This document shows, piece after piece, positions 486 through 36,916 of a stretch of DNA of 64,000 nucleotides (its first letter is position 1; each line of letters begins with the position of its first letter). Source of the stretch: a virus; IMG/VR virus record IMGVR_UViG_3300025122_000006, one strand, 5' to 3'. A model generated the notes under the pieces. The model saw only the letters and a program-made list of their open reading frames with translations, ran no database searches and was not told where the DNA came from. The translations under genes and the position numbers were made by a program.

Positions 486-1835
486 TCAAATATCTAATTT
501 CAATTTAAAAGTATAATCTCTGGCTTCTGTTTTCTTTACTGGATTTGCCAACGATGTGACGGCAATAAGGTTACTGTTTTCATCGTAAATGTTTATTTTA
601 GAAATATAAGTAGTTTTTTCAAACGAAGCTGATGTGTGGGATGCGGTAACCACATTTTTGATAGAAGTTGAGCCTTGTGCAAAAATATTCCCGGATCCTG
701 TTTGAGCGACAAGCTGCTTACTTAAATCGCGATATGTGGGATTGTTGGAGTGATTAATCTGACCCTTGTCGGCATGAGCGAACATTGTCATCGAGGTGAC
801 ATAATTAGTACCTTTAAAATTGAGATCGTAACTGGAGGCCGATAAAGTTGTGTGTTTTATATAATCATTTAATGTTGTTCCATAATACAACCAAGATGAT
901 CGAATTGGTGTAGATTCACCATCGTACATAATACCAATATTATCCGGGGTGCCAACATTAAAATCATAAGAAGCGGTAAGCATTATTATGCCTTCATCAT
1001 ACATTACTAATCCTACCACGGAACCCGTACTCGACCCGGTAACTTCTATTAGTTCTCCATTTTCATTCTTGTCAGAACATTCAGCTATTTTAGAACCAGT
1101 TATGCGAAACTTTAAATTCACAGATCCTTTCTTTATGCTTGATCCATAATACATTTGAGGAATAAAAATAAAATTAATATTTGAAGTTAAAAGGTTTCTA
1201 TTAGGAACGGTTGAGCCATCGTGACTTATATAAACCCCATTTGATTCCATAGAGTCCCTAAAGAAAAGACTGGAAGTCCCTGCTGTTCCGCAGCCTTCAA
1301 AAATAAAATGTGGAGAAAGCACAGAATATTTTCTGGCGATATTTTGTAGCGCAGAAGCGGTTGGGTTAACACTCAAAACTATAGTTGCATTTATATTCGA
1401 CCCAGAGGGAATGTCAAATGCGGTCACCACCTCAGTGTCTACCTTTGAAGTTAAGCGCCTTGTGATTGGTACAGAATAACTATATGAAGACGTTACAGAT
1501 TGAACCTGACCCAGGCCAAACAGTTTGGATGTATAATAGCCATCTAAATTTGTATTAGCAGACGCCAATGCAAGATTTTGTGAAAACGAATTAACAATCG
1601 GATTTGAAAGATTTTTTCTAAAATCTTGGCTAAAACCATGAGAAGCTGAAATTGTTGGCGTTGCTGCTAAAGTATTTCTATTTATATCATAAACAATGAG
1701 TCCACCGTTAGAACCCGATGTAATTTTCTCTTTATTTGTATACTGCCTTGATTGGTAAATAAAGATATTGTATTCTGGGTAAGTTTTTAAACGGTTTACA
1801 AATAAATCATCCTCGGCAAACTCAAATTTGTGCAT
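486..1835 (-). CDS. Virion structural protein (baseplate/tail-fibre attachment; C-terminal tail-collar DUF3751-like motif)
   Basis: 449 aa. C-terminus YISKINIYDENSNLIAVTSLANPVKK resembles the EIGLYD..G.LIAVA..P..K motif; paralogous to the adjacent 393-aa gene; structural context. Confidence 0.6.
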   Translation of the reverse strand: MHKFEFAEDDLFVNRLKTYPEYNIFIYQSRQYTNKEKITSGSNGGLIVYDINRNTLAATPTISASHGFSQDFRKNLSNPIVNSFSQNLALASANTNLDGYYTSKLFGLGQVQSVTSSYSYSVPITRRLTSKVDTEVVTAFDIPSGSNINATIVLSVNPTASALQNIARKYSVLSPHFIFEGCGTAGTSSLFFRDSMESNGVYISHDGSTVPNRNLLTSNINFIFIPQMYYGSSIKKGSVNLKFRITGSKIAECSDKNENGELIEVTGSSTGSVVGLVMYDEGIIMLTASYDFNVGTPDNIGIMYDGESTPIRSSWLYYGTTLNDYIKHTTLSASSYDLNFKGTNYVTSMTMFAHADKGQINHSNNPTYRDLSKQLVAQTGSGNIFAQGSTSIKNVVTASHTSASFEKTTYISKINIYDENSNLIAVTSLANPVKKTEARDYTFKLKLDI

Positions 1836-3016
1836 TAGTAATCTAATCTTGTCCTGAAAGTTAGTTCTATTGATGGATCCTTGCGAATGGGCTCCGACAT
1901 TTTCCCAACTGCTAGCAGTTGATTATCAGCTGAATAAAGGCCAACTGAAGTTATATAAGAAACTGCTTGATCGTTTACACCCTTAACAATTCTAAGATTG
2001 GATCCGCTAAGATATGTTGGGTTTGATGAATAGTTAAATTCGTTATGATTTAAGCGGCAAAAATGAATTGTAGAATTAAGCTCCACGGTGTTATTAAACT
2101 CTATCAGATCTATTCTGCGCCGGAAAGCATTGGCCGAACCGCTAATTTCTTCGGATATTAACGAACCAGTGAATCCAGTGGTTTGATTAAAAAATTGTAG
2201 CGTACCAGAAGAGGTCAGCGATGCCTGTCCTCCACGGATTGCTGAGGCTCGGAGGAGGCCTTCACCGGTTCCACCTGATTCGTCATAAGCTTGGAGCAAA
2301 GAACCAGTTAAAACAACAACGCCGGCTTGATAATATATAAGTCCGCAGCGCCAATATGTAAAGCCACCGATTGTTTTGGTGTTAGTATTGCTTGTGTGAA
2401 TATTTCCACCTTCGGGTCTTGTCGAACCAGCAGCAAAGTCAAAGTCTTTAGAACTAGTAGCATATAATATTCCATATTCTCCCGCTGGACTATTAATACG
2501 ATAATTGGTTAAAGCATCCGCATCAGAAATAGTTACATGATTTCCAAAAGGTTCGTTAAAAGAAGCACTAACTCCTATTCTCATAGAAAAAGTTTGTTTT
2601 TTAATTTCATCTTTCACAAGTAATCTCGAGAATGGAAGGAAAATACATGTATCCATTTTGGCTCCACCCGTAAGATCGCCATCCTCGTCAAAATTTTGGA
2701 TATTTCCATCTTTATCAAAACCTACTAATACTTGAGCCATTTGATTATAAATATTATCTTTTTTGGTTGTTTGTGATGTTACTGCTAAAGGAGATGTAGT
2801 GGATGTTCCAAAAGCAATATCAAAAATATGATTTGCGCTAGAAGACAAATAAGGGTAATCATATACCGACTGAAACATTCCATGAGCATAATCTTTTATG
2901 TTAGCATCTGCATACGATCCACTAACAATAGAGCCTGTAATTGGAATAGCCTCGTGTAAAAGTGTTTTAGTTGAAACTACATCTTGTGAACCTAGTGGTT
3001 TATAAATACTCGCCAT
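1835..3016 (-). CDS. Virion structural protein, paralog of 486..1835
   Basis: 393 aa. Shares the N.S.NPTY and ITSVGLYSADNQLLAVGKMSEPIRK C-terminal block with 486..1835. Confidence 0.6.
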   Translation of the reverse strand: MASIYKPLGSQDVVSTKTLLHEAIPITGSIVSGSYADANIKDYAHGMFQSVYDYPYLSSSANHIFDIAFGTSTTSPLAVTSQTTKKDNIYNQMAQVLVGFDKDGNIQNFDEDGDLTGGAKMDTCIFLPFSRLLVKDEIKKQTFSMRIGVSASFNEPFGNHVTISDADALTNYRINSPAGEYGILYATSSKDFDFAAGSTRPEGGNIHTSNTNTKTIGGFTYWRCGLIYYQAGVVVLTGSLLQAYDESGGTGEGLLRASAIRGGQASLTSSGTLQFFNQTTGFTGSLISEEISGSANAFRRRIDLIEFNNTVELNSTIHFCRLNHNEFNYSSNPTYLSGSNLRIVKGVNDQAVSYITSVGLYSADNQLLAVGKMSEPIRKDPSIELTFRTRLDY

Positions 3017-3028
3017 TTTTTTTTCCTA

Positions 3029-3967
3029 TTATAATTTTGCAAATCTTACTGGTATATCGATTGCATATCCAGTTGTCAGACCGCTGACCCTTACAATTGT
3101 ATCAATTGTAGGTATTGCCGGGGAAGCCCCTGCATTATTTTCGACTGCTGTCGTGGTGCCAATTGTGTCAAATAAATAACTACTATTCCTCAATCCCATC
3201 GAGGAAAATATTTTAAATTCTAGTGTGGACGCAAGAGGTCCATTAATCGGCGATGAAGTTGCCGTTAACTGTTTTTGAGAAGGAGTAAAAACAAATTTCG
3301 GATCACTATTCTTAGAAATAATATACGTTGCAATATTGTCATCATCAATGGCAGTTGGGCTTAAAAATGTTTTTCCATCTTTATCAACAACTCCGCCTAA
3401 ACGATTATCGATTTCAATTTGAAATTGCGTTTCAACAAGAGAAGGATCAATCGTCGAAACGTCAGTTGAATGAATACCAGCATCAATTTTGATATAACCA
3501 CCGCCGATATCAGGATTTTGCCCGAATAAAACCCCCACAATAACATTATTATCTGAATCAAACCCAATACTGGTGGTTAGTCCAAGATGAGAATTGTCCT
3601 CTGTGTTGTCATCTGTCGCAATAACAAAATTTCCAATAGAGCCGTAAGTTTTGACGCTATTGTTAGCGACTGTATTTAATTTTAATATTGGTAAATATTG
3701 AAGGTTTTGTTGAGTCAAGGTCATCAATTTCGACTTCATAGAAGACATATTGTTCGTAAATGCCTCAAGAATCGGAGTTTGTAAAATACTTAAATCTTTT
3801 TGTGCTGTTGAGGCATTATAATCATATAGACTATAATTTATTTCATCATCGCCTAAAGCAAATTTAACGACTCGAAAAGACCCATCTCCTCTTGCTAGTC
3901 TTCTTCTTCCTTCATCTGTTAAAACAACATCAAGAATAATGTCGCCGCTATTGTCTTGAAATGCCAT
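3029..3967 (-). CDS. Virion structural protein (N-terminus like the tail-collar/DUF3751 N-terminal motif)
   Basis: 312 aa. VLTDEGRRRLARG..FRVVKFALGDDE; AGGAG RBS. Confidence 0.6.
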   Translation of the reverse strand: MAFQDNSGDIILDVVLTDEGRRRLARGDGSFRVVKFALGDDEINYSLYDYNASTAQKDLSILQTPILEAFTNNMSSMKSKLMTLTQQNLQYLPILKLNTVANNSVKTYGSIGNFVIATDDNTEDNSHLGLTTSIGFDSDNNVIVGVLFGQNPDIGGGYIKIDAGIHSTDVSTIDPSLVETQFQIEIDNRLGGVVDKDGKTFLSPTAIDDDNIATYIISKNSDPKFVFTPSQKQLTATSSPINGPLASTLEFKIFSSMGLRNSSYLFDTIGTTTAVENNAGASPAIPTIDTIVRVSGLTTGYAIDIPVRFAKL

Positions 3968-3990
3968 TGCATATCTCCTTTCTTATCTAA

Positions 3991-4016
3991 ATAGCAAAAT
4001 AAAAAGATTTTGCTAT
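3991..4016. promoter_or_regulatory. Perfect 10-bp inverted repeat (ATAGCAAAAT-6nt-ATTTTGCTAT), possible hairpin or terminator overlapping a putative late promoter
   Basis: Arms at 3991-4000 and 4007-4016; overlaps the stop codon of 4013..6241 and the CTATTTA motif at 3988-3994. Confidence 0.4.
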
Positions 4017-6241
4017 GTTTCATCTGCCAATCTGAAAGTCACATTAATATCCATTTTCTTTCCAGTATGTTTTGATGTTATCCTAAATTTAAATGTTTTA
4101 AAAGCATCGGGCCCTAAAAATAATTTATTTGATAAAATTCCGATTGCGTTATCAGACTCATTAAAAATTAATTGTTCAAAGTTGGGATAAATTTTCATAA
4201 TTCTTTTGGCCATCTTAATATGTGTATTATAATTTTTTTCCTCAAACTTAAATTCATGAATAGAAAGTTTGGTTTCATCAGAATCCTCAAGCAATTCTAC
4301 TTCATAAATCACTGTAGGGTTTGAAGGAGTATTATGATAACTCATAGATCTAAATAAATAGTAATACTTCTGATTGGGAACAATTTGATCTTCAAAAAAA
4401 GCATCAAAATTTTCTGTTGAAAATGCAAAATTTTTATGTCCAGGTGCGATATTATGCCAAAACCAATTATTTTTTTGATCGACAGTTGTCAAATAATTTC
4501 CTCTAAAATCTGATATAAATTTAGGCTTTGAATCCATTCTATAAATTTCAAAAGCACCTATAGCATATTTATTTACAAAAGTAGTTCCATAAACAGAATC
4601 AGATGAAACTAACAAATTATTACTGATCTCATCATCAGAATCTAAAATTCCCGTAAACTCAATATGTTTATCGTACATTTCGTTTAAATTTGCTTGAAGA
4701 TAAATTTTCAGGGAATTTCTTTTTCCCCTTTCATTATAAAAAATAACTTCTGGTGTAGGAGGGGGTTCATCAAAGAACATCTTTTCAAAATTTTGTAAAG
4801 GAATCTCAATAATTTGAAGCGATGGTTTAATGGTGACCTTGAGTTGTGCTTTATATTTATCTAAAGTTGTGGAAATCTGATCCTCCAGCACTTCGTTAGT
4901 CGAAGATTCCATTTCACCAGATTCATTTGAAACAAACAGATCTGAATAAGAATAAAGAGATCCCAAAACTATTTTTAAACAAATCGCCTTATAAATATAT
5001 TTTCTTCCAAATTTCAATTGTGTGTCTAAAAAATTTGTTAAAGAAGTGGTGTAATAAGTTTGAATGGGCAGGGTTGCATCGTTATCTAAATATTTTTCTA
5101 TTTTGTATCCTAAAACATATTCTCTACAATCCGCATGTCTTTCCCCGATATCAGCTACATCATTTTGAGTGTTGTTCCTTATGCCATTTATGGTTTCTTC
5201 ATAATCCCTCAAATTATTGAAAATTTGTGTTTGAAGTTTTTCCAACATTCTAATTTTTCTTATTTGATTAATAAATCTATTTGAAATTGAATTTGGATTA
5301 ATATCTTCCTCTTCTAATAAAAAAGTTTCATCTCTTTCTTCTAAAAAATTTGCCGCGTCATAATTTAAAATTAAGTTTATCATATTATGCGCCCTAACAT
5401 TTACTTGATCCGAGTTTGCATAAAATCTTGAATTTTGAAAAGCAACATTTCTTTTTATACCTTGAAATAAATATTTAAGCTGTCTTGTTTCATTTAAAAA
5501 ATCTAAAGTTGGCATTGGGAGTATACTGTTATAATTAATTTGTAAAACATATGGTAACACTTCTCCCAAACTCTCAACTCCGAGGTGCCTCCCTTGTTCT
5601 ATAAGAAAAATATTTCTTTGTTTAACATTTAGTTGCGACAGAGACCCCGTATAGTTTTCTATTCTTGCTGTATATTCATTATATAATCTCTTAAAATCGT
5701 TACTTGAGTTTGGAATTTTTCCATCCGTATCGGTACTATCAAATTTTGTTAATATTCCGGATGAATTTCGTATAAACCGACCCGCTTCTGCATTATTTTT
5801 ATAATTCATCAAATTAATGTTTAATAAAAGATTTGAATCATAAATTTTTGTCGCGTCTTCATATTCAGGATTATGAATATTTTTATTTAAGATTTTTTCT
5901 AAATTATAATTGTTATTAATGATAAAGTAATGATCAAAAAAATTTCTATTAGTATTTATTTTTTTATTAATAAATTCTCTCCATTGTATATGATCTCTAA
6001 ATTCTGAATCGCGCCCAACTATAGAAATTGTTTGAGTTTTCTCCGGAAACAATACCACATCATTTATTATAGGTGACGTAATTATAGTTTTATTATCATC
6101 GAGCTTATTTGATTTAAACTTGTCGGTGCTGCTTAAATTGCCATCTTCGTTTATTTCCCAATATTTACCGAGCTCTGCTCTAAGGCTATCTGGAGCCGAA
6201 AGGTTTATTACATTATGTGGATCAACGTATTTAATAGCCAC
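4013..6241 (-). CDS. Hypothetical virion protein with possible FN3-like segments
   Basis: 742 aa. Two D..L/I....Y.Y strands (FLDTQLKFGRKYIYKA; FEDQIVPNQKYYYLFRS). Confidence 0.55.
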   Translation of the reverse strand: MAIKYVDPHNVINLSAPDSLRAELGKYWEINEDGNLSSTDKFKSNKLDDNKTIITSPIINDVVLFPEKTQTISIVGRDSEFRDHIQWREFINKKINTNRNFFDHYFIINNNYNLEKILNKNIHNPEYEDATKIYDSNLLLNINLMNYKNNAEAGRFIRNSSGILTKFDSTDTDGKIPNSSNDFKRLYNEYTARIENYTGSLSQLNVKQRNIFLIEQGRHLGVESLGEVLPYVLQINYNSILPMPTLDFLNETRQLKYLFQGIKRNVAFQNSRFYANSDQVNVRAHNMINLILNYDAANFLEERDETFLLEEEDINPNSISNRFINQIRKIRMLEKLQTQIFNNLRDYEETINGIRNNTQNDVADIGERHADCREYVLGYKIEKYLDNDATLPIQTYYTTSLTNFLDTQLKFGRKYIYKAICLKIVLGSLYSYSDLFVSNESGEMESSTNEVLEDQISTTLDKYKAQLKVTIKPSLQIIEIPLQNFEKMFFDEPPPTPEVIFYNERGKRNSLKIYLQANLNEMYDKHIEFTGILDSDDEISNNLLVSSDSVYGTTFVNKYAIGAFEIYRMDSKPKFISDFRGNYLTTVDQKNNWFWHNIAPGHKNFAFSTENFDAFFEDQIVPNQKYYYLFRSMSYHNTPSNPTVIYEVELLEDSDETKLSIHEFKFEEKNYNTHIKMAKRIMKIYPNFEQLIFNESDNAIGILSNKLFLGPDAFKTFKFRITSKHTGKKMDINVTFRLADET

Positions 6242-8582
6242 TTGTTCCGCCTCCTCTTGGACTGCTATATGAAGAAGGAGCAGCGCCGGGCTGTCTGCCT
6301 CCCGGAGTTGTTGTTGTAGGTGGTGAGATCGGTTGGACGAAATTTTTCAATATTTCCAAAATCCCTCCCTTGTTTGGATCTTGAACTATCACGTTTGATG
6401 TTGAGTAGGGAGAAAATTGCATTTCTAAACTCAATAATACCGATGGAATATTATAGCCTGGGTCTACTAGCCCGAATGACAAAGCCGGCACAGAGGGTCG
6501 GACTGGTTCGACAACAAGTGTGTTAGAAGATGGTAATACCAAAGTCATGTTTGCTCTCACCGGTGTTGAATACTGTTCTTCATAAAGACCAATGGAGGGA
6601 TCAGACCATTTTTCAATTTTTATTAATTTTGGCATATCGGAACTTAAATCAGCAGTATTCAATATTTTATAAATGGGCGTAGACATAATATATTTATCTT
6701 GTTCATTTTTAAGAAACCCTTGAAAGACACTTAAAGTATGTACATTCTGTTGTGTTTCTTTTAAAACAGCGCTAGACTCACTATTTTTTAAAGGATCGAG
6801 ACCATCTTTAATTTTTATACCACCGGATCCTGCCAGGCTACTGATTTGTGAAGGAATTGGTTTGCTAGAACGTTGATTTTTAGAGGCTTTGAAAGCTTTT
6901 GAAAAAGGAGCAGTTTGATTAATATCTTTAAGGGTAGTCACCTGTTCCGGATGATCCAAAAACTTTTTAGGAAGCGCATCAGAAAGAATCTTAAAATTTC
7001 TTGCTTCTTCTCTATTTATTTGTTCTTTATCTATTTTTTCTATAAATGGTAAAACATCACCTATAAAATAACTGTCATCTGGAAGGTATTCTTTTGTTTC
7101 CATAAAATCTGTATCTTCTCCTTCTCTTGTCGATTCTAAGTTAGATTTCACACATTTACCAATTGATAGGTTAAAACTATTTTGTGAAACTGTACCTGCT
7201 CTAGTTGTTGGAAAGCTCGATTTATATTTATTATTAAATTTAGATTCCTGGGCTTTGACTGTTTTGATTAAACGAATTTGTTTCATTGTAGTCGGGTTAA
7301 TGGCCGATAATCCTAAAGATAAATCCACAGTGCTTTTCTGATAATTAATGCCTATAGGTGTCATATGCGGACTAAACGCCGCTGGGGTGACAGTTCTTTG
7401 GGACTCATTTGTGCTTCTCTTAAGAAGGCCACTTTGATTAAAAATCATAAGATCATCAACTTTAGAATTTGTAATAATATTATAGCTCAATTCATTATTA
7501 ACTCGCAATCTGTATGTCTCATTTGTTCTAAAAGTTGTAGATTTTTTATCATTTACTATGTTAGATATTTTTATATCATTAACAGAGAAATTCATTTCAC
7601 TAATTCTATATTTCTCCATTAACCTGGAATGAAGGGCTGTAAGTTCAATTAATATATTTTCCATTAATTCCGGAGTTGTTATTGGCACTGGTAAAAGTGT
7701 AAAATACATAGATTTGACAATGTCGTCTTTTGAGTACTCTTCACCCAAAAGTTCTTTAGCTGTTATATAATCTTTAATAAGTGATCCAAATCTGGTTCTT
7801 GATAATATAGCCATGTCATTAACAGTTAAAGAAAATTTAGCTGGATTCACCTCTATCTGAAGTCTATTGAAGAAATCTTTTACAAATGAATCATGAAATC
7901 TGTTCTCCTGATAATTATAAAATTGAGCATTTTTAATAAAAGTAACGTGATTTGAGGCAAATAAAATTGCTTTTTGTAAAGAATTCGTTGCTTTTTTAAC
8001 ATAATTCTCGTGTTTTGTGTCTACGAATAATTCTATTTCATAATCCACCGATATTGCATTATTTTTTACGGGAGTGTAGTCGCTTATAAATAAAGTTTTG
8101 ATATTTGGTACCAAAGTAGCCTCCCTGACGAACGAGACCCTTTGTGCTCCTTTTATGTCTTCTATTGTAATCTCTTTGGATGATAATATTTTTAAATAAC
8201 TTCTGTCTTCTATTTTTGATATATCTACATCGTAAAGCCTTTGTTCTCCAAAATCATATCTTTGTATATCTTTCACCCTATTATCGTTTCCAAAACTAAA
8301 AGATAAAATTATGCTGTCGAGAGATTTATAAGGCCGCAAAGTCTTGACTCCCACGCTATTAACTTCATAAGTTTCTTCTATAACTTCTTTTAAAATTACT
8401 TTTCCTTGATTATATATAATATCGTCGCTTAATGCATTAAACAATTGAGGATTAACTTCGAACATAATAGATGCGATGTTGGAAATACTTTTTGCTAATT
8501 CCTTTTCATCTATATGAAGAGCCATCGTTACAAAATTTTCCGATTCTGATTCTACTTTTAAATTATAATAACTTGAAGACAT
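6231..8582 (-). CDS. Hypothetical virion protein
   Basis: 783-aa ORF in the structural operon; Pro/Gly/Ser-rich C-terminal tail. Confidence 0.6.
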   Translation of the reverse strand: MSSSYYNLKVESESENFVTMALHIDEKELAKSISNIASIMFEVNPQLFNALSDDIIYNQGKVILKEVIEETYEVNSVGVKTLRPYKSLDSIILSFSFGNDNRVKDIQRYDFGEQRLYDVDISKIEDRSYLKILSSKEITIEDIKGAQRVSFVREATLVPNIKTLFISDYTPVKNNAISVDYEIELFVDTKHENYVKKATNSLQKAILFASNHVTFIKNAQFYNYQENRFHDSFVKDFFNRLQIEVNPAKFSLTVNDMAILSRTRFGSLIKDYITAKELLGEEYSKDDIVKSMYFTLLPVPITTPELMENILIELTALHSRLMEKYRISEMNFSVNDIKISNIVNDKKSTTFRTNETYRLRVNNELSYNIITNSKVDDLMIFNQSGLLKRSTNESQRTVTPAAFSPHMTPIGINYQKSTVDLSLGLSAINPTTMKQIRLIKTVKAQESKFNNKYKSSFPTTRAGTVSQNSFNLSIGKCVKSNLESTREGEDTDFMETKEYLPDDSYFIGDVLPFIEKIDKEQINREEARNFKILSDALPKKFLDHPEQVTTLKDINQTAPFSKAFKASKNQRSSKPIPSQISSLAGSGGIKIKDGLDPLKNSESSAVLKETQQNVHTLSVFQGFLKNEQDKYIMSTPIYKILNTADLSSDMPKLIKIEKWSDPSIGLYEEQYSTPVRANMTLVLPSSNTLVVEPVRPSVPALSFGLVDPGYNIPSVLLSLEMQFSPYSTSNVIVQDPNKGGILEILKNFVQPISPPTTTTPGGRQPGAAPSSYSSPRGGGTSGY

Positions 8583-8593
8583 GCCTACTATTC

Positions 8594-13300: not shown

Positions 13301-15278
13301 GGCAAGGATAAAAACCATCATATGGCAATAATTTTTTGATTGCTCGGCATCTTAATGTTAAAACTTTTGAGTCTGCGAAATCATCATGATCATTTTCAAT
13401 AATGTCAAAATGTTTCATAAAGTCTGAATTGGAATATGTTTTGTAAAAGTTCTCGTGCGAAGATCTATTGTTGCCCTTTACCCCGCCGGTGATCTCAAAT
13501 AATTCTTGAGAAAAATATATAGAACCGGTATTCATAATATCTGCAACATGCTCGCTCATCCTAAACTCAGGCAAAACAGAATAGCTTTGCCCTTTCAATC
13601 TTATATTTTCTGCAAATGCAGCATATGAATCATAAAACGGCGTTTTACCAGCTTGTATGTGTGCTTCCCAAAGAGCCTCTCCCTGTCCAAAATCAGACTG
13701 GAGATATGACTTAGTTGCTGGGCCACCTGATCCTGTTTCCGGGATTTCCATACCCGAAGGATTTGAAACAGATTGTGTGTTGTGGTAAGTATGTCTAAAA
13801 GCATATTGGGGCGCACAGCCGTGAGTAGAATCGGCAATGGAGATGCCATTGGCCTTAAAGGGTTCAACATGTCCTGTTGGAAACTTTTCGGAAAAATCAC
13901 AGTCTTTAAAAAGAGTCGTATGTACCATTGAATATAATTGGCAATAATTATTTTGCAAAACCCCAGGTGCTTTATAATTAATCCCCCCTCGGTTCTTAGT
14001 GTAGACGACTGTGTAGCCGCTGGTGGCCTCACCGGGATCCCGAGCTGACTGTCCTAAAAATGGAAATCTCCTATAATCACCAAAACCATCCTCTGGCTGG
14101 AGACTCGATGCTGATCTCGCCATCCCAAAACCAAAATCATCCTGTGCTCCCTGTGCAGAACTACTAGCGGCTACCCTAGGGTTTAGGCTCCCTGTCCTGG
14201 TCAAAAAATTCTCAGATGCGTCTAGCGGCCAAGAAGACGCAACCAATCGAGCTTCGGCGCCAGCACTGGGCGTGGCACTGAATAGCCCTCCCTCTCGCAT
14301 CCACCATACCGAATGTCTTCCAAAGCCATCCCCTTGTCCAAAAGAATGCCTTTGCGGGTAGCGGTCATGATCACTAAGTCTGTCCGGTCGATTAACTCTA
14401 AAGAAAGATTTGAACTCCGGCCTACTTCTTATCGCGTTTCTATACATATTTTTAGATAAAGGATAGACAGTTTCTCGGTATTTTAAAAATTCCCAATGTG
14501 TAAATGGACTATCTGGTTCTTCTAAATTTCCATTTAAATAAAATGTTTTAATAAGATTATACTCGGAATCTTTATGATCCATAACAATATTGTGTAAAGT
14601 ATTTACTTCATCATTAGCAAAAGCATTTAAATTATTCCCGAATGATGTAAGAACAGAAAATCTGTCTAGCTCTTGAGTTGAGCCTTGTTTAAAATGTCTC
14701 CCAACATTCCAAACTAAAGGATAGCTGTTTCTAACAACAGCCGGTTCTTTGAAATTATAAAGTTTAGAATATCTTTCTAAAGCCAGTTTTGTCCCGCTGC
14801 CAGAAGGGGAAACATCGATAAGTTGGCCAGGCTGCGTAACAAATGTTAAATTGCTATTTCTATTGTGAAATCGCGATACGGGATTATCTGCTGTTCTGAT
14901 TTGTTTCCAAGTACAATGTCCATATGGGCCATTTCTATGAAGGTTAAGAGAAACAAGGATATCAGGGATTTCATGGGGAACGGGGATGCTCATGTCGAAG
15001 CCGAAGGGACCAACCGTCGTGGACTTGGGGAGGTGAGCCACACTAATGTTTAAATATCTCTTGATATGTCCCCCTTGCGATGGGAGTAGTCCTGACAAGC
15101 CTCCTGCGAGGTCTCCTGATGGGATCACCAGATCCTCTGGGGGGATATTTCGAGGCTGATCTTGCCCGTTCAATTGCGGGGCGAAACCAATAGTATTAAT
15201 ACTAGCGCTGATTGGGTCTGAAATTAATGTATTCATTCCCACAAAATCAACAAAAACACCTTTTTTAAAAGTAGCCAT
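10299..15278 (-). CDS. Giant hypothetical virion (baseplate-associated) protein
   Basis: 1659 aa in the structural operon; GC-rich, Pro/Cys-rich C-terminal extension. Confidence 0.65.
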   Translation of the reverse strand: MATFKKGVFVDFVGMNTLISDPISASINTIGFAPQLNGQDQPRNIPPEDLVIPSGDLAGGLSGLLPSQGGHIKRYLNISVAHLPKSTTVGPFGFDMSIPVPHEIPDILVSLNLHRNGPYGHCTWKQIRTADNPVSRFHNRNSNLTFVTQPGQLIDVSPSGSGTKLALERYSKLYNFKEPAVVRNSYPLVWNVGRHFKQGSTQELDRFSVLTSFGNNLNAFANDEVNTLHNIVMDHKDSEYNLIKTFYLNGNLEEPDSPFTHWEFLKYRETVYPLSKNMYRNAIRSRPEFKSFFRVNRPDRLSDHDRYPQRHSFGQGDGFGRHSVWWMREGGLFSATPSAGAEARLVASSWPLDASENFLTRTGSLNPRVAASSSAQGAQDDFGFGMARSASSLQPEDGFGDYRRFPFLGQSARDPGEATSGYTVVYTKNRGGINYKAPGVLQNNYCQLYSMVHTTLFKDCDFSEKFPTGHVEPFKANGISIADSTHGCAPQYAFRHTYHNTQSVSNPSGMEIPETGSGGPATKSYLQSDFGQGEALWEAHIQAGKTPFYDSYAAFAENIRLKGQSYSVLPEFRMSEHVADIMNTGSIYFSQELFEITGGVKGNNRSSHENFYKTYSNSDFMKHFDIIENDHDDFADSKVLTLRCRAIKKLLPYDGFYPCQRTVQLSEQFARSYFRNIKPLTFFGEQLGLRQGVLPRGLPDIQLDGAKQGLFGTLFAPGVLFNSIKSGIAVDFPYITASVNHSGAIGGHFEDARQLPYEDDFDDGAGGFASADKKPWTNVITEDFTGRVPFEALLEPEAYLTNVPIANLEVHASGNITASAIWNGAGDEIYKMMAHNFMAEIPEFFLKDQNFTNISSLPQGNPNFGNVRKGAVYGMRIKMYRSMTGSATNVTGAVGTIYEVPQDIANNSYRETFTMYSRPSAFGPNSLGETELLGKNLRRIGAVQLNFYNPESTRMHTFRVDRGNGDAAGRQYMWKDYRYGYNFPYTPPYYHGQAWLDIYYTGSVDGKVSLEEILQFAQVSSSYTRFDSTFYLNNMDYHLTASAGFFEVAGHTKARGSLDLWTTTGPQAWGQNRINRNAVQLSGSINPFGKGALKSIDLLDDETAQEVNVVVNTATEEENRWIIQTKFETPMLNFNHISAKNGNLTLPIVGSASAARGMWHQYGKIPEVNEGVFLQVGPIPDTWREATFQGIGQTAEPLPVRPDVGDLAEVCGFSKEPVKLGRTADSKIISEAVVAIPFTVEQGTKKFFKLDPDSVRKYLKNPEESKIGLSVKMQIKRMEKYILPPSFDFVHNETVEPIAMYIFEFTHRLDQQDLADIWQNLPPKIGRTLEEATVQITHPLLFKELLGGGHDGNNTPHEYPKELRWMVFKAKKRAASNYFQKVISRNAAGISETGGRRLGKVTVDEFGSTTDVQFNWPYDYFSLVELASIDAEIEWVNADFSDFEEIMPKVNSIAASEAGIEYTNRELVDILEPPPAATVEPPEHEPVLVAGMTGAPSGAPATLLTGMGPFAFFRERFLVNVMNMGSYTEVNANLQKGYAIEEMEANYREWEITPSVLNEIEAYYQSWVDNAGFLEVPTEPTAGPTCDEIKAYAKSMYRRECDEFKWGCCPGRGAAACAVNAITARTRAKTSAVNRWVETDEKDIRDCLSWWNPGNWNER

Positions 15279-15280
15279 AA

Positions 15281-18200
15281 TTATATCCCTGTTATGTATC
15301 CATAAATAGTTGAAGCGGCTGGAAAATTAATTGCATTAATAGAAGACGTAACTCCTGTTGCATTCGATGCCGAATGTAATAATCCATTTGGCGGTGAATA
15401 ACCAAGTAGTACTTGATCGTTTCTCCAATTTTTTTGTAAAACTGAATCGGGAACATGTGCCGGGTTCTTTGCTTGATCGTGTGGTGTTTTGCCTGTTCCG
15501 TATGAAATTGTTGCCCCAGATAAAGCTGATCTAATCCAACTATATTGAAAATCGCTTCTAGGTATCGGTGATGATATATATCCATTATCAAACCTACTAC
15601 CGGTCACCACAGCATTACCACCTGCTTTTGGGTCGTTGATCGGGTCGACGCCATATTGCATGCGCCTTGATATGTTTCTATGCTGCTTTACAAAAGAACC
15701 AGATGTGACTGATGACGACAAAGAGTGGATTACACCATAATCCAAGTCTCTTCCAAATTTGCCCATATGAGATGCCAGGACGGATTGCAATCCCCGCTGT
15801 TTGCCCAAGTGATCCGATACTCTTATAGTTGCTCGGGTTTGATGTTCCAACGCGCCGTAATCCAGAACCTTCCCTTTAGGTTCTCCGCTACTTGACATTC
15901 TTACAGTTAAGTTTCTAAACGGAAGAGCGTTATGAACTGAATAAGTGTGCCTCTGCACATCTAGATAACCCATTGATTGAACCTCTGGTCCTCCAGGTGC
16001 TGAAAATCGGCTACATATTTCATATGTCGATTTTGTTAAATTCGTTTTAGGAATTTCAATTACAATATCGTTTGAATATGTTGTTAGGCGCAGATTAGTG
16101 GGGCTGGCAGGGGCTCTATACCACGGGGTTTGGTATTTCAGGGATTTAACATCTGGTTGTCGGTTGTTGTTCGCAACACCAAACACATTGCCTGAAAGAA
16201 ACGGTGCTTGTCCGACAAGTGTCATGTAATTTGTGGTCAGTGGCAGCGACTTTTTTATAGATGTTGGCAAATCTAAATTAGAAGCGGAAGCAATTCGATA
16301 CCATCTTCTTTGATCTCCTTTCTGAAGGGTGACAATTTCGTAGCCCTTCCTGTAATTGCCCATGATAGCCGAGCCTGAACTGTGGCGGATATTTCTTACA
16401 TTTAAAGGACGCTTTGCATATTCATCTCTAAATTTGGTTGCCCTTGCTTTATCAACATTGGGGTATATTTTACCACCATAATCCGCAGATACATATCCCA
16501 TTGCTCCGTCGGCTCGATAAGGAATGGGACCTGTCCAGTTGGTAAGCTCGCCTGGGACTAAGCCCCAAGCCTCTGGCCTATTTCTGGCACTGTCAAGCTT
16601 TTGTATGCCCCCGAGAGGAGCTTTGTCGGGGTCATACTTATTTATTCCAACGTGTCTAGATTGTTGTCCTCCAACATGCGTTCTTGTGAACGGACCTTGC
16701 ATTGGAATTTCGTTCGTGTGATCGGTTGTATCGGAGTGTATATTAGTTACAATTACGTGATTTTTAAAATATGTATTAATATATCGATTGTATCCTGTAT
16801 TTACGGTGCCGCTGACCAAAGTCATTGGCACTATAAGATCGCCTTTTAATGCATGCTTGTAATCGTCACCAAATCGATTTCCTACTTTTGCAATAAAATT
16901 AAGTTTTATCTTTTCATTTGGATTTTTAACATCATTGCAAATATTTGATTGTTGTATGCTGTGCCCCAGTCCTTCGCCAATAACTATAACATTTTTTGGT
17001 ATTTTAAGAAAAGCGAAACTACCAGTCTCAAGAGATCCATGCGGCAATATTGCATCTTTAAAGGCCATTACGTTTTTATCACGAGCATAATTAATGCCGC
17101 CGTGTATTGACCTTCTTGGGGCGGACATTTCAAACCTGTAAGGTTTGGATAATTTTCTTATTGTATAGGTTGAGCCATAATATATAGTACTTCCGCTCAC
17201 CCTCCGAAGTGAATGAGATTGAAGAGAGTGGTTGTTTTTCACAATTCTTAAAGTTTCTGCTGTATTTGTCTCACCTTTTTTTCGATCTGCTTGCCAAAGG
17301 CAATTGTGTGATGACCCGCCGCTGACAGGAGCATGACCAAATTGCCAATCATAAAGTAACTCTTGAATTCCCTTCACAGACCCTTCGGTAGAAGTCCTTC
17401 TTCCAAGGATTCCTATCTTATTGACATATTTGTTTCTTTCTAAAACATGACTCTCTACTACATTTTTAATTCCCTTAGAGAATCTCGAAGATGCTGGATA
17501 TAATTGCTCGAGCGCTATAGAAATAGAATCGTCAATCCATTTATAAAATGATGTAAATTTATCCAAATTAGGAGTATTTTCAACATCTTCAAAGAAACGT
17601 TCCTTCAGAAAAGATAACAAACTATAATCATGATGATAACGTTGATTTGGTTGCCCTATTAGATTATTGAAATCCAAAGCAGTAGAAAACATATTTAACA
17701 TTTCATCGGAAATAACACCATGTAAACTTTTTTCAAAAGAATAGAAATTATCAGAAACATCCTCATCAACAAAGAAATTCTCACTTCTATCATCTTTTAT
17801 TACAACAAGATCGGAAGAGAATAGATCATCTGGTTGCTTTTTTCTAGCTGTATATATGAAATTTTTATCTATTGAATTGGTGCTCGAAGCCCTAAAACCT
17901 GTTGCTTTTCCTTCATTGTTTTTTAGAACTATACCATTATAAATTCCATAACTAGAAGTTATATGAGAATTGGCTGATCCTGATGACAAATCATTTATTA
18001 TTAACTCCCCAGAAGGAGTTGATCCGGTCTTGTTAAAGAATGCCCAATGTAAAGCTAATGTTTTTTGTCTAGGTATTTCTTGACCGTCATTTAAGAAAAT
18101 TGTATCGCTTTCAAATGGCTCATTCGCACCAAACGTTTCTGAATCATAAGCGTGTTGGTTAATTGCTTCATTTGATAAATAACTACTCCAATAACGAACG

Positions 18201-20761
18201 TAGCCTAATTTAATGTCTGTTTTTTGCAGTGTCGAACCAGTAAAGTTCGTTTTATGAGCGCCAGCCCAGATACGTTTTTTGTTAGTTACAAATTTGTGGT
18301 TTGTTAAGCTCCCGGTTAAAAGAAAAGAGTTTCTTATAATATTCGCTTCAGCCTCGACACCATGGAGTTCTAAGGTATATCCAGCGGCAGCAGCGCCAGA
18401 CACGTGACCCGAAAACGGATAACTATCATGCTTAATTCTAAGAGCAAGATTCCATTTATTATTTTCGTACTGACTATTAAACACTGATGACGATATAAGG
18501 GTATTGCTTCCCGATATTAAAAATCTAATTTTTTGTGTTTCACCAAACTCCAGATCACGTTCTAATTTTTCTTTTACTATAAAAACACCTAAATCATAAT
18601 CAGCGTCGGTTCTCCAGCTGTCCCAAGTATAATCATCAGCAGCAGGCACAGCGGAATGATATCCCAAAACCGAAGCCGTATAATTTGTAAATTTTATATA
18701 TCCTATTTCATTAGATCTTGCCTTGCGGGGGAGAATAATTTCACTTTCTAAAGTAAGAGAAGTATAATTTGGAGATCCCGAAATATAAGTAGCAGCGTTT
18801 ATTGTACTAGAAGTTTGATAAAGGGTAGCATCAAAACTATCTTCAAAATTAAAATTTAAATAATTTCTTTCAAAAGATTTATATTCATAATTATCTCTTA
18901 AAACGTATGTAGAATCATCAGCATAAAGTTTTAATTTTACCAGTTCATTACCAATACCGAGAGATCTAAAAAAGTTTCTAAAAGCTTTTTCTGTTCCTTT
19001 GGATTTGTAAATCCCAACAAGATTATTATAAAGATTATGATAAATTATATCTCGAACTTCGGATATCTTTTTTTCATAAACTTCATTATCGTCTTTTGCT
19101 CTAAATCTCTCCGGAACAGTGGCTTCAACAAACAAGTCAGGAATCACAAAACCTTTTGAATATAATAAATTTTTTGCAAACGGTAAAGGTTTATCCGATC
19201 CACTCACATATCTTTCATCATGCAAAGTGCTAACAGAGTTTATTTGATGCCATATTGTATCAAAATAAGAACCTATTATTTGACATAAATATTTTAAATT
19301 CTTACCTGACTCGGTATCGGTTTCCTGCATCCAGCCTGGAAACAATCGATAAAACATAGAAGTGCTTTCCAAATCAGCCAAGCTACCACTAGTCTTATAA
19401 CGCGTTATGGATCCTGTAACATCTGGGTGTGAAGAGTACACAATCGGATCTTTAAATTCTCTAAGGGCTGCTCCCGATTCAACTATGGCAGAGCCAGTTA
19501 TTCTTGATGCATCTAAGTCCGCCGTATTAGACCCGGAGTACCCAACCCAAATCCCATCAGCTATTCTTCCTGAATAATCCAGAACTTTTAAATCTACAGA
19601 ATCATCACCAGTGATTCCCTCGTTAAATTTATAATAAAATCCTAAATTTATGTTGGGATCTCTTCTATTGGTTCCACCGCCTACAGGAACGAGGCGGGTA
19701 TTACTAATTTCTTTATGGGTTCTCGCAGTTTTCCAAAACCTAAATTCATCTAAAGATCCGGATAGTTTGTTATATCCCAACATATCTAGACTATGAAATA
19801 TATTTCCTGATACAGAGGTGTAAAGAGACCCAATAGCCGCATTAGACCCAGTGGTTAATCCAACTATACCAGAAATACTATTTGCTGCGCTGTCTAATAT
19901 GTGCTTTGAAACTGCTTTGACATTGTCTTTATATAAATCAATGCCAGTTCCAGCGGAGGAAGACTGTAATGTTAAAGCATAATTGTGCCATAAACCGTCG
20001 TATGCATCAGCTAATAATTGCTGGTCGTCAAAGCCATGCGAACCTGATCGTAGAGTTAAATTTAATGCATCATTCGAACTAGTTAAATACAAAGTCATTC
20101 TGCCATAAGCACTGGATCCCGTCGCTTCGCCGTTCCAAAGATCAAAAATAACTTCTTTTTGGTGGGTTTGTGCGTTTGATGGAGATGCCTTTTTCAACCA
20201 AAATTCAATCGTTGTGCCCTCAGATAATATCACCTCTAAAGATGAGCCACGCTTATTAGAAGGATCATAAATCATTGATTTATCAAACGTCGAATAAAGT
20301 TTTTTTCCTATCATTCCGCTTGAAGCAGTATGAGGGCCTCCAAAGATTCTAATGTACTCTTTCGTTGTTGGAAGGCTGTTCCCGCGTAAACTACTTGTTA
20401 TGGCCTTGCCTTGAACTGAAAATTTAGCATACCCATTTGTTCGAGGATAAAGATTTCCTAAAACATATAAATCCAAATAAGAAGATGAATTTTCAAACTC
20501 AATTTTTTCTGCAAGAGTCCCATCATACGGATATTCTTGATAAATTCTTTTAAATGCATTTTCATAATAAAGTTCAGCAGATCCAAATTTAGAAAACTTT
20601 GAAGGATCTGAAAAATCAATAGCCGGAATAAATCTATCCGTTTCTTTTCTCCTAGCGTCAATGTAATCTAGTGATTCCACCAATGCAGATGCACTATTAG
20701 GAGTTTCGGATTTCTGAAATTGTTTATTACTATAATTGCTGAATAAATCTTTTATGCTCAT
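15281..20761 (-). CDS. Baseplate wedge-like protein (T4 gp7 / P2 gpI-like segment) with two LamG/concanavalin-like domains
   Basis: 1826 aa. TIEFWLKK...WHNYAL...GSLDEFRFW (LamG); IYKSKGTEKAFRNFF (gpI/gp7-type KGT motif); second LamG-like block KWNLALR...GYVRYW; lies downstream of gp6. Confidence 0.65.
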   Translation of the reverse strand: MSIKDLFSNYSNKQFQKSETPNSASALVESLDYIDARRKETDRFIPAIDFSDPSKFSKFGSAELYYENAFKRIYQEYPYDGTLAEKIEFENSSSYLDLYVLGNLYPRTNGYAKFSVQGKAITSSLRGNSLPTTKEYIRIFGGPHTASSGMIGKKLYSTFDKSMIYDPSNKRGSSLEVILSEGTTIEFWLKKASPSNAQTHQKEVIFDLWNGEATGSSAYGRMTLYLTSSNDALNLTLRSGSHGFDDQQLLADAYDGLWHNYALTLQSSSAGTGIDLYKDNVKAVSKHILDSAANSISGIVGLTTGSNAAIGSLYTSVSGNIFHSLDMLGYNKLSGSLDEFRFWKTARTHKEISNTRLVPVGGGTNRRDPNINLGFYYKFNEGITGDDSVDLKVLDYSGRIADGIWVGYSGSNTADLDASRITGSAIVESGAALREFKDPIVYSSHPDVTGSITRYKTSGSLADLESTSMFYRLFPGWMQETDTESGKNLKYLCQIIGSYFDTIWHQINSVSTLHDERYVSGSDKPLPFAKNLLYSKGFVIPDLFVEATVPERFRAKDDNEVYEKKISEVRDIIYHNLYNNLVGIYKSKGTEKAFRNFFRSLGIGNELVKLKLYADDSTYVLRDNYEYKSFERNYLNFNFEDSFDATLYQTSSTINAATYISGSPNYTSLTLESEIILPRKARSNEIGYIKFTNYTASVLGYHSAVPAADDYTWDSWRTDADYDLGVFIVKEKLERDLEFGETQKIRFLISGSNTLISSSVFNSQYENNKWNLALRIKHDSYPFSGHVSGAAAAGYTLELHGVEAEANIIRNSFLLTGSLTNHKFVTNKKRIWAGAHKTNFTGSTLQKTDIKLGYVRYWSSYLSNEAINQHAYDSETFGANEPFESDTIFLNDGQEIPRQKTLALHWAFFNKTGSTPSGELIINDLSSGSANSHITSSYGIYNGIVLKNNEGKATGFRASSTNSIDKNFIYTARKKQPDDLFSSDLVVIKDDRSENFFVDEDVSDNFYSFEKSLHGVISDEMLNMFSTALDFNNLIGQPNQRYHHDYSLLSFLKERFFEDVENTPNLDKFTSFYKWIDDSISIALEQLYPASSRFSKGIKNVVESHVLERNKYVNKIGILGRRTSTEGSVKGIQELLYDWQFGHAPVSGGSSHNCLWQADRKKGETNTAETLRIVKNNHSLQSHSLRRVSGSTIYYGSTYTIRKLSKPYRFEMSAPRRSIHGGINYARDKNVMAFKDAILPHGSLETGSFAFLKIPKNVIVIGEGLGHSIQQSNICNDVKNPNEKIKLNFIAKVGNRFGDDYKHALKGDLIVPMTLVSGTVNTGYNRYINTYFKNHVIVTNIHSDTTDHTNEIPMQGPFTRTHVGGQQSRHVGINKYDPDKAPLGGIQKLDSARNRPEAWGLVPGELTNWTGPIPYRADGAMGYVSADYGGKIYPNVDKARATKFRDEYAKRPLNVRNIRHSSGSAIMGNYRKGYEIVTLQKGDQRRWYRIASASNLDLPTSIKKSLPLTTNYMTLVGQAPFLSGNVFGVANNNRQPDVKSLKYQTPWYRAPASPTNLRLTTYSNDIVIEIPKTNLTKSTYEICSRFSAPGGPEVQSMGYLDVQRHTYSVHNALPFRNLTVRMSSSGEPKGKVLDYGALEHQTRATIRVSDHLGKQRGLQSVLASHMGKFGRDLDYGVIHSLSSSVTSGSFVKQHRNISRRMQYGVDPINDPKAGGNAVVTGSRFDNGYISSPIPRSDFQYSWIRSALSGATISYGTGKTPHDQAKNPAHVPDSVLQKNWRNDQVLLGYSPPNGLLHSASNATGVTSSINAINFPAASTIYGYITGI

Positions 20762-22341
20762 TCTTCACTCACTCTAAACTTAAATTTATACGGCTGTTCT
20801 ATGTAACTATTAGAATCTTCATCAAAGAAAGAATAATAGATTTCGTATTGGTAACCTTCTTCAAGCATGCCAGTATCAAGTTTAAAGTAATTTCCGGAAA
20901 GATCATAAGAGAGGCCTGTATGATACAAAGAACCAGTTCCATATGCTATGACAATTTCATCATCAATCGCTCTTTTAATCTGATAAGACGAACTCTCTAT
21001 AAGAAGGCTGGGAACAGAATTTCTTATCGCTACATTATAAATATTTGGTGACCAATCCTTTTCTCTAACATAAAGTCTAAGCTTTGGAGTTTCACTTTTT
21101 CTATATTGATCTCGTAAGCTTGGCATTGAAAGTGTATATTTTTGATCCTCAGTAAAATCAGACGAATCGAAAGTTTTCGGTGTGATAGAACCAGTATGAA
21201 ATTGAAGGGCTGCGGTTTTTGCTGAAGTTACCGGGCCACTTCCACTATACCAAACATCAAAAACCCTATCTAACTGTGCAGAGCCAGTAAAAGCAACAGA
21301 GGCAGAGTATATACCAGTAGAAACATAGCCTCCAGTAACAGCATGTTGAAAGCCAGATTCGGATGCCACGCCGCCAGATATACTTAGCCTGAGAGCATCG
21401 CCATAAGGAGCAGAGTTGTCTGACGATCCGGAAAATAAACTAACAAAAATTAAATTTTTACCAATGCTAGGAATGTTTCTCAACCTTCCCCTAACATAAT
21501 TGTAAAGATATATTGTATTCATGTTGTCTGAGGCTGGCGCGACAGAACTACTAAAATAAAAATTGCCACGGTCATCCCTTTTTGAGTCATCCCACCTTGC
21601 TTCTAAAACAGGTTTCTTAAAGAAAAATTCAGAATCTCTACCGAAAAATCTTTTGGTATAATATGAATCAGTAGAGCCAGTGGCGTTATGAATTACGCTC
21701 CCCGATTCATTATTGTCACCGGTGTCAAAAAAGCCCAAAGATGATGAAGCCTGTGCTTCATAGGAGCTGCTTAATTTGATGAGAAATCCGTAATTTGATC
21801 TTGTACCATCAATCCACTGTTCTACAAAATCAGAAACGTTTATTGTTAAATCCTCAAAACCAGTTTCAAGTGCTTGTACAGCAGGGAGGGATGAATGAGT
21901 GTCGCCACCGACATTAGTCCAGCCCTCGGTACTAGAAGCCGAGAGCCAATTAGAGCCAATATTATTCTTGGTCAAATCTTTATAGGTCTCCATGTCTAAT
22001 CCGTAACCTTCTTCCCACTCTCGAGATACAGACAACACCTCCATTTTAAAATCTCTTGGTGTTGTTCTAGAATGCGGAGCATCATACATTTTGAGATACC
22101 AAGTGACCGATCCTGAAGCTGCTAATTTATCAGCGTTTCTATCGGCTATTATATCATTTGTATTGAATTGAATTAAAACCCTTGATAATTCTGAGGACGC
22201 CGAAGAGGCGCCGCCATAAATGGAAAAAACCTCTAGAATATCAGAGGCTCCCATATTTGATCCAGTGCCACGGGTTGACAAGTCTTCTTCAAAAGCATTT
22301 GTTATAGTATTGTCTTTCGTCGCGAAATATCTTCTGATCAT
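20758..22341 (-). CDS. Virion protein with DNRLRE/CBM96-like N-terminal domain
   Basis: 527 aa. ATKDNTI...N.GASDILEV...SRVLIQF...W...NYGFLIK...KPVLEARW pattern. Confidence 0.55.
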   Translation of the reverse strand: MIRRYFATKDNTITNAFEEDLSTRGTGSNMGASDILEVFSIYGGASSASSELSRVLIQFNTNDIIADRNADKLAASGSVTWYLKMYDAPHSRTTPRDFKMEVLSVSREWEEGYGLDMETYKDLTKNNIGSNWLSASSTEGWTNVGGDTHSSLPAVQALETGFEDLTINVSDFVEQWIDGTRSNYGFLIKLSSSYEAQASSSLGFFDTGDNNESGSVIHNATGSTDSYYTKRFFGRDSEFFFKKPVLEARWDDSKRDDRGNFYFSSSVAPASDNMNTIYLYNYVRGRLRNIPSIGKNLIFVSLFSGSSDNSAPYGDALRLSISGGVASESGFQHAVTGGYVSTGIYSASVAFTGSAQLDRVFDVWYSGSGPVTSAKTAALQFHTGSITPKTFDSSDFTEDQKYTLSMPSLRDQYRKSETPKLRLYVREKDWSPNIYNVAIRNSVPSLLIESSSYQIKRAIDDEIVIAYGTGSLYHTGLSYDLSGNYFKLDTGMLEEGYQYEIYYSFFDEDSNSYIEQPYKFKFRVSEE

Positions 22342-24553: not shown

Positions 24554-24568
24554 TAAATAATTAGATCT
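24554..24568 (-). promoter_or_regulatory. Putative phage late promoter AGATCTAATTATTTA
   Basis: 15 bp identical to 34365-34379; intergenic, upstream of the gp25 RBS. Confidence 0.6.
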
Positions 24569-35833: not shown

Positions 35834-36208
35834 TTAATCTCCTTTTTTAATTCTGTAACTGTCTGTGTCAAAATGTTGGGTTGAGAACTCAAAAAGTTCT
35901 GTATCCTCCAGTGCAATCATTTGATGGCGCAATCCACGGTAAACATGAAAATTGTCACCTGGGCCTAATATTCTTTCCTCTGCCACTAGGATGCCGTGTT
36001 CATACATCACATCTCCATCGGAATATCTAACTTTAATTTTTCCAGATTGCACATAAAAAACTTCGTCTTTTAGTTTGTGATAGTGCCACGAGCAACGTTT
36101 TCCTTTTACAAAATATAAAAGTTTCCCACAATATTCTTCGCAGTTAACAATCCACTTTTCAAATCCCCAGCCTTTAGGAACAAATTTAATTGGTAAAGAA
36201 TTCGACAT
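35834..36208 (-). CDS. Cupin (mannose-6-phosphate isomerase / sugar isomerase-like)
   Basis: VPKGWGFEKW, SWHYHKLKDEVFYVQSG, H(V)..G..HQ cupin motifs. Confidence 0.8.
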   Translation of the reverse strand: MSNSLPIKFVPKGWGFEKWIVNCEEYCGKLLYFVKGKRCSWHYHKLKDEVFYVQSGKIKVRYSDGDVMYEHGILVAEERILGPGDNFHVYRGLRHQMIALEDTELFEFSTQHFDTDSYRIKKGD

Positions 36209-36898: not shown

Positions 36899-36916
36899 TT
36901 TAAAATAAACTCGTTT

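Follow-up and report, generated by a model that had tools for sequence, protein, structure and literature searches.

In Gram-positive bacteria, GtfA and GtfB prime serine-rich-repeat adhesins, GtfB being non-catalytic and the acceptors being long disordered repeats. The cytoplasmic heptosyltransferases Aah and TibC modify AIDA-I and TibA on many serines in short loops between beta-strands. Bacteroidota use a general O-glycosylation sequon, D-[S/T]-[A/I/L/V/M/T], and the glycans of chloroviruses are N-linked at atypical sequons. Among bacterial viruses, mycobacteriophage virions are glycosylated by phage-encoded glycosyltransferases (GTs), and the glycans lie on the C-termini of capsid and tail-tube subunits (Freeman et al. 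2023, Cell Host Microbe, as cited in PMC12619734 and PMC11256854). Here we analysed a 64,000-nt stretch of viral DNA, IMG/VR record IMGVR_UViG_3300025122_000006 (the window, meaning the whole stretch), in which the tripeptide [S/T]-[G/A]-S is enriched in a subset of virion proteins and in which a nucleotide-sugar and GT locus is encoded as well. We regard a candidate O-glycosylation sequon on outer tail proteins as the best reading of this tripeptide and give it an even chance of being correct.

Enrichment of [S/T]-[G/A]-S in five proteins of the window

The motif was scored as TGS, SGS, TAS or SAS, and the expectation was taken from shuffled proteins. Five proteins, encoded on the minus strand as are all large open reading frames (ORFs) of the window, contained a clear excess. 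These are a 449-aa virion protein of no known family (486..1835; 12 motifs, 1.5 expected), a 393-aa protein (1835..3016; 7 motifs, 1.2 expected, z 5.2), a 1659-aa protein (10299..15278; 13 motifs, 2.5 expected, all within residues 24-1151), an 1826-aa protein (15281..20761; 25 motifs, 4.7 expected, z 9.2) and a 527-aa protein (20758..22341; 12 motifs, 2.2 expected). Whole-protein shuffles gave z-scores of 5.2 to 9.2 for each of them. The counts agree exactly with those made by hand in the initial annotation, as do the control counts of none in the baseplate protein gp6, none in a 2404-aa and a 783-aa protein and one in a 742-aa protein. The remaining 50 ORFs of the window held 9 motifs against 14 expected. 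A 342-aa protein (9274..10302, minus strand) was borderline, with 2 motifs against 0.3 expected.

Pooled, the five enriched proteins (4854 aa) contained 69 motifs, and when residues were shuffled only within blocks of 10-30 residues, 13-15 were expected. The excess that had been claimed over composition therefore persists at short range, which places the signal in the order of residues and rules out a locally Ser/Gly-rich composition as its cause. TGS (26 against 2.8 expected, z 14) and SGS (22 against 4.0, z 8.4) were the two most enriched of all tripeptides in the pool, and SAS (13 against 3.3) and TAS (8 against 2.1) were each enriched about 4-fold. Permuted and neighbouring forms were at or below expectation (TGT 0, SGT 3, AGS 1, GGS 1, NGS 0 and DGS 1), so that S-G-T is as rare as first noted. 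GS dipeptides in the enriched proteins were preceded by S or T in 48 of 68 cases (71%). The position before the motif (-1) was hydrophobic in 54% of motifs against 32% in the background, in line with the earlier impression from the sequence. The motifs were single and scattered, with no longer repeat around them, and their codon use varied, as had been claimed: 58 distinct 9-mers were found among the 69 motifs, which rules out a DNA repeat or a codon artefact. A codon bias was seen as well, TCG encoding the last serine in 18 of 69 motifs and 33 of 386 other serines of the same proteins.

The enriched proteins lie beside a recognizable baseplate region. The gp25 gene (133 aa; 24136-24537, minus strand; PF04965 GPW_gp25, E 2e-14) and the gp6 gene (598 aa; 22338-24134, minus strand; phrog_219 baseplate wedge, E 1e-19) encode inner baseplate wedge proteins, both with 0 motifs, and on sequence grounds their adjacency is the mark of a T4-type contractile-tail baseplate. 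Transcriptionally upstream of them is a hub-type M15 peptidase protein (32778-34079), and between this and gp25 lies the 2404-aa protein (24568..31782, minus strand), which is presumed to be internal and had 0 motifs against 1.9 expected. After gp6, the transcription order is 527-, 1826-, 1659-, 342-, 226-, 783-, 742-, 312-, 393- and 449-aa proteins. The 1826-aa protein carries a Laminin_G_3/ConA-like domain and occupies the position of gp7 in this order, but homology to T4 gp7 was rejected, as no similarity was detectable by BLASTP or PHROGs. The 312-, 742- and 783-aa proteins (3029..8582, minus strand) had 0, 1 and 0 motifs, respectively, and belong to a stretch of low GC content, which is probably a swapped-in distal module and possibly one for host range that was exchanged recently. 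GC content was 0.31 at 4001-8000, where the motif-poor 742- and 783-aa proteins are encoded, and 0.36-0.42 in the flanks. When solved structures were searched by sequence, neither the 449-aa family nor the 1826-, 527-, 783- and 742-aa proteins gave a match.

Distribution, conservation and position of the sites

Full-length matches of gp6, at about 30% identity, were found in Flavobacterium phage immuto, Microcystis phage Mel-JY01 and the 484-kb uncultured phage LR756508, which are the nearest relatives by this protein; a search of viral_contigs with gp6 patterns returned no close relatives. Genome-wide scans of single proteins were made in these three phages and in Rhodothermus phage RM378. 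The same excess was found in immuto, Mel-JY01 and RM378, in each case in only a subset of proteins, and no ORF was flagged across all 484 kb of LR756508. In immuto and Mel-JY01 the flagged proteins were those encoded by the block of genes that follows gp6, the fibres and tailspikes, the tail sheath and a small number of neck or structural proteins. The motifs of both sheaths are concentrated in the variable N-terminal and middle part and not in the conserved C-terminal part, with only one motif beyond residue 300 in each. The flagged ORFs of RM378, at 64.8-78.5 kb and 17.8-20.3 kb, are annotated as hypothetical only, and two of them had weak PHROGs matches to a virion structural protein and a head-tail adaptor.

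Tape-measure-like giants, hub, gp6, gp25 and replication proteins were not enriched, and the Mel-JY01 counterpart (2255 aa) of the 2404-aa protein had 1 motif against 3.5 expected. Tube proteins were not flagged in the scans, and the capsid proteins of immuto and Mel-JY01, with 3 and 4 motifs, were marginal at most (z not above 2.4). In T4, proteins of the baseplate, fibres, sheath and capsid together had 12 motifs against about 21 expected; in the marine cyanomyovirus S-PM2, the giant baseplate proteins had 19 against 14. These counts rule out a generic property of T4-like baseplates and fibres. The excess is a property of one clade and is limited to outward-facing tail proteins. The immuto fibre is peculiar in that SAS/TAS-rich runs occur in regular fibrous repeats, followed by a YadA/Hep_Hag-like head at the C-terminus. 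A tblastn search for other phages with such a repeat-rich fibre returned only self matches, probably because of low-complexity masking.

Homologs of the enriched proteins number in the thousands in marine metagenomes, which indicates an abundant uncultured marine lineage, and site conservation was scored over 121 members each of the 449-aa and 527-aa families. For the 449-aa protein, over 1400 marine homologs were found with an identity of about 50%; eight of its sites are nearly invariant, and TGS246 is present in 121 of 121 sequences. In the 527-aa family (more than 4800 homologs) some sites are conserved, such as TGS26 (114 of 121) and TGS469 (112 of 121), and others, in 28 columns, are specific to lineages, while the number of motifs per protein stays at 5-15. 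Within alignment columns the first residue changes between S and T, the middle one among G, A and S, and the last is almost always S. Residues in motifs were more often identical across homologs than the same residues elsewhere (Ser 62% against 38%, Thr 66% against 44%, Gly 89% against 59%). Deep orthologs of the 527-aa protein have kept the fold (hhalign probability 97-99%), and their motifs, 12 in the window, 5 in immuto and 4 in Mel-JY01, are at mostly different positions. The LR756508 ortholog has 0 motifs, with SGS76, SAS450 and TGS469 replaced or deleted.

Structures were predicted for two of the enriched proteins. The model of the 527-aa protein (predicted local distance difference test, pLDDT, 79) consists of a sandwich of beta-strands like that of carbohydrate-binding modules (CBMs), followed by immunoglobulin-like domains, and its fold matches a chondroitin-binding CBM. 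The AlphaFold2 model of the 449-aa protein reached a pLDDT of only 55, and a fold search with it gave nothing usable. In the confident parts of both models the motifs are located at strand ends, in hairpin turns and loops and at a helix N-cap.

These positions could also be expected if the motif were a lineage-specific structural element, closing strands and tight turns in the beta-domains of the outer tail with no enzyme to read it, the GTs serving some other target. Every enriched protein is beta-rich, strand termini, hairpin turns and helix N-caps carry the motifs in the two models, and conservation of sites within families is what structural residues would show. The immuto fibre fits such an element as well, since its TAS and SAS form regular repeats and [ST]A[ST]G is structural in its YadA/Hep_Hag-like head. 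The comparable beta-rich baseplates, fibres and sheaths of T4 and S-PM2, however, do without the motif. A turn preference would not require S or T before GS in 71% of cases, and the exchange of G, A and S in the middle means that a backbone angle open only to glycine is not needed. Orthologs of the same fold carry their motifs elsewhere or, in LR756508, carry none. A middle residue that is small but not specifically Gly, together with turnover of positions at retained density, argues against a requirement of the fold or of a Gly turn, and we consider the structural explanation unlikely.

The sugar locus and the GT4a-GT4b pair

A nucleotide-sugar and GT locus extends over 35.8-57.1 kb, further upstream in transcription. 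It includes a 421-aa GT4 glycosyltransferase (GT4a; 55854..57119, minus strand), which has family matches and is conserved in the whole far-T4 clade, its 411-aa GT4-like partner (GT4b; 54622..55857, minus strand), in which the EX7E motif is retained, and a 542-aa two-domain transferase (52997..54625, minus strand) with a GT-B-like N-terminal half and a GT2 domain. A toolbox for nucleotide sugars follows (35834..52995, minus strand), nearly all of it soluble proteins: short-chain dehydrogenase/reductase-type dehydratases, epimerases and reductases, a DegT aminotransferase, a pfkB kinase, cupins, a methyltransferase, a B12 radical S-adenosylmethionine protein and a split thiamine-diphosphate E1. 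A hydropathy scan of all ORFs in 35.8-57.1 kb revealed no polytopic protein, and no Pfam or NCBIfam match to a flippase, polymerase or initiating phosphoglycosyl transferase was obtained in the sugar locus. As the locus is essentially soluble and lacks a flippase, a polymerase and a polytopic initiating transferase, its product is probably placed on a cytoplasmic acceptor. For the same reason a lipid-carrier polysaccharide pathway of the Wzx/Wzy or ABC-transporter type was rejected.

Orthologs of GT4a were found in immuto, Mel-JY01, LR756508 and RM378 and, at that level, in no other isolated phage. Clear orthologs of GT4b were found in immuto and Mel-JY01, and RM378 encodes a divergent GT4b beside GT4a (hhalign 84%, E 7.5e-6). 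A GT4b ortholog sought in LR756508 was not found, and a tblastn search found neither GT4a nor GT4b in T4 and S-PM2. Thus the pair is present in 4 of 4 phages with the motif excess, the window phage included, and in 0 of 3 without it (T4, S-PM2 and LR756508; Fisher p ~0.03, relatedness ignored). The gene order PD-(D/E)XK nuclease, GT4a, GT4b, GT2, methyltransferase is common to the window, immuto and Mel-JY01. GT4b is 67-73% identical across more than 7500 marine homologs, and H-G-E-G-F-G-L-P...E, which contains EX7E, is invariant across 42 homologs.

GT4a and GT4b are predicted to form a heterodimer. The modelled complex had an interaction prediction score from aligned errors (ipSAE) of 0.83, the best control having 0.00, and 58 of 80 solved complexes, compared with 2 of 110 mismatched pairs, attained that mark. 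Runs agreed in at least 96% of contacts, with a partner pLDDT of at least 90. In the predicted interface the C-terminal tail of GT4a pairs with strand 248-256 of GT4b, which is invariant in the GT4b family. Some GT4b homologs of about 650 aa (P0258, P0260 and P0303) are fused to a GT2 domain, which indicates a functional tie of GT4b to the downstream GT2 gene. Many GT4a homologs of 800-900 aa (P0362, P0386 and about 12 others) are interrupted, precisely at the EX7E catalytic motif, by an insert some 450 aa long. The flank of this insert, ...VFN|C-NEGFGLP, resembles that of an intein with a homing endonuclease, so that these long relatives were ruled out as GT4a-GT4b fusions.

An excess that is specific to a lineage and to residue order, with turnover of sites, calls for a reader without naming which. 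The reader might thus be another trans-acting factor, acting by phosphorylation, acylation or phosphoglycosyl transfer or in assembly or as a chaperone, and the GT cassette might glycosylate phage DNA. The cassette is located in the replication region beside a PD-(D/E)XK nuclease in four relatives, and in LR756508 its neighbours include a thymidylate synthase and also a DNA methylase. There is precedent in phage GTs that hypermodify DNA with varied glycans (cited in PMC12619734). In the window, by contrast, the sugar locus directly adjoins the baseplate genes, and no kinase or other Ser/Thr-modifying enzyme was seen among the window proteins. The multi-enzyme toolbox for deoxy-, amino- and methyl-sugars is also more elaborate than the DNA glycans known to us. 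We hold this explanation to be the least likely of those considered here.

Several features around the cassette were recorded. The N-terminal half (285 aa) of the 542-aa protein is similar to viral proteins of about 280 aa that stand alone, some with a Glycos_transf_1 signature, and from its sequence the 542-aa protein is probably a fusion of two transferases. In LR756508, at 296-316 kb, the genes before GT4a encode a DNA methylase, a thymidylate synthase and a PD-(D/E)XK nuclease, and those after it a cytidylyltransferase and a GT29 sialyltransferase-like protein, in the place of GT4b and GT2. A 317-aa polytopic membrane protein of the window (57203-58156, minus strand) is encoded between the PD-(D/E)XK nuclease and GT4a; the sequence GNDSAQTLGT at its N-terminus is reminiscent of PiT/PHO4 phosphate carriers, and no hidden Markov model matched it. 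Also on the minus strand are a 221-aa protein (59291-59956), whose match to zinc-metallopeptidase families (ATLF, M90) is weak and falls below the cutoff, and a PIN-PhoH fusion protein gene (60427-61797).

The candidate sequon and known glycosylation systems

A motif that is specific to lineage and order, restricted to the surface and conserved yet mobile points to a lineage-specific reader. The GT4 pair are the only conserved lineage-specific enzymes that track it, which makes O-glycosylation the best reading. In this proposal [S/T]-[G/A(/S)]-S, which in most cases directly follows a beta-strand, would be a short acceptor signal on the outward tail, baseplate and fibre proteins of a clade of distant T4-like phages. 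Late in infection, the 17-kb soluble sugar locus would make nucleotide sugars. The cytoplasmic GT4a-GT4b heterodimer would prime the Ser/Thr hydroxyl of the motif on folded virion proteins, and the downstream GT2 and other transferases would extend the glycan to give a glycan coat on the tail. The initial annotation had called the tripeptide a selected signal on exposed parts, and this has gained from its recurrence in three relatives, from the constraint on its sites and their turnover, and from its co-occurrence with the GT pair. What we infer, as that annotation did for O-glycosylation by the encoded GTs, is that the motif carries a modification, that this modification is a sugar and that the GT pair attaches it.

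A number of observations weigh against O-glycosylation of the motif. The 742- and 783-aa proteins, which are expected to be exposed, show no excess; they and the other motif-free protein of the low-GC stretch may be recent imports awaiting adaptation, which we count as an excuse and not as evidence. Long variants of the 527-aa family contain an additional domain of 135 aa that is without the motif, the major capsid proteins are not clearly enriched, and non-target proteins gave no clear signal of motif avoidance. The earlier suggestion to place the motifs on predicted structures did put them at strand ends, hairpins and loops, but in these models an exposed acceptor and a structural turn fit such places equally well. 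In immuto, Mel-JY01, RM378 and LR756508 the cassette lies among early and replication genes, with a nuclease, DNA polymerase or thymidylate synthase as neighbours, so that DNA glycosylation fits its position as well. The comparison of relatives with and without GT genes favoured the pair but not GT4a alone, which LR756508 has without a clear motif excess. Moreover, the set of four against three is small and the phages are related, so that motif and pair could both be traits of the clade. The heterodimer prediction was made with custom-made alignments and may lean on solved GT-B heterodimers. A literature search for glycosylated virions in the clade, or for a phage sequon, gave nothing relevant beyond the mycobacteriophages and turned up no publication about the clade itself.

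In its fullest form the proposal is that an abundant clade of marine and freshwater T4-like phages, which spans hosts and has thousands of relatives in metagenomes, coats the outside of its tail with a glycan of its own, and that a heterodimeric cytoplasmic GT4 enzyme reads [S/T]-[G/A/S]-S, a minimal sequon of three residues, on folded beta-domains. No O-glycosylation sequon would have been defined for a bacterial virus before this one. We advance this tentatively, at somewhat less than an even chance. If the motif is a sequon, virion glycosylation would be common among abundant aquatic myoviruses, which infect at least 3 host lineages, and not an oddity of mycobacteriophages. Coating of the tail with glycans could have consequences for adsorption, for how well virions withstand proteases and grazers, for how readily particles stick in marine snow and for how host defences recognize them. 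For the glycoengineering of proteins in bacteria, a sequon of only three residues, together with a soluble transferase encoded by two genes, would offer a compact tool. Because immuto, Mel-JY01 and RM378 are cultured, the sequon can be tested directly.

Among the described systems, the Bacteroidota sequon was rejected: the residue at -1 is hydrophobic in 54% of motifs, D is outside the six commonest there, and S/T is followed by G/A and then an invariant S. That pathway is also disfavoured by the cytoplasmic location of virion proteins. GT4a and GT4b resemble GtfA and GtfB as two adjacent paralogs of GT4 fold predicted to form a heterodimer, with acceptors of the Ser-X-Ser type with a small middle residue, and the SAS/TAS-rich runs of the immuto fibre are like the GtfA/GtfB acceptors. 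Membership in that family was rejected, the NCBIfam scan giving only generic GT4 and no GtfA/GtfB model; a 29-residue match to SdgA was the sole related match of the pair. Unlike the non-catalytic GtfB, GT4b retains EX7E, which does not agree with an inactive partner, and unlike the repeats of the adhesins, the candidate acceptors here are single tripeptides dispersed on folded beta-domains. With Aah and TibC the proposed system would share the cytoplasmic modification of a folded beta-rich surface protein, and the pfkB-type sugar kinase of the locus could fit a heptose route of that kind; no homology to them was seen, the candidate enzymes here being GT4 and GT2.

The best solved relative of GT4a is B736L of the chlorovirus PBCV-1 (E 3.5e-10, residues 6-314), a virus that glycosylates its capsid protein with its own enzymes; to our knowledge, the acceptor of B736L is not established. 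Sites of the mycobacteriophage type, in Ser/Thr-rich C-terminal tails of capsid and tube proteins, do not describe the motifs found here, which are dispersed, with a capsid z of at most 2.4. The candidate sites differ from those of mycobacteriophages in being a dispersed tripeptide on baseplate, fibre and sheath proteins. Like the mycobacteriophages, the clade described here has soluble phage-encoded GTs that may decorate the structural proteins of the phage itself in the cytoplasm.

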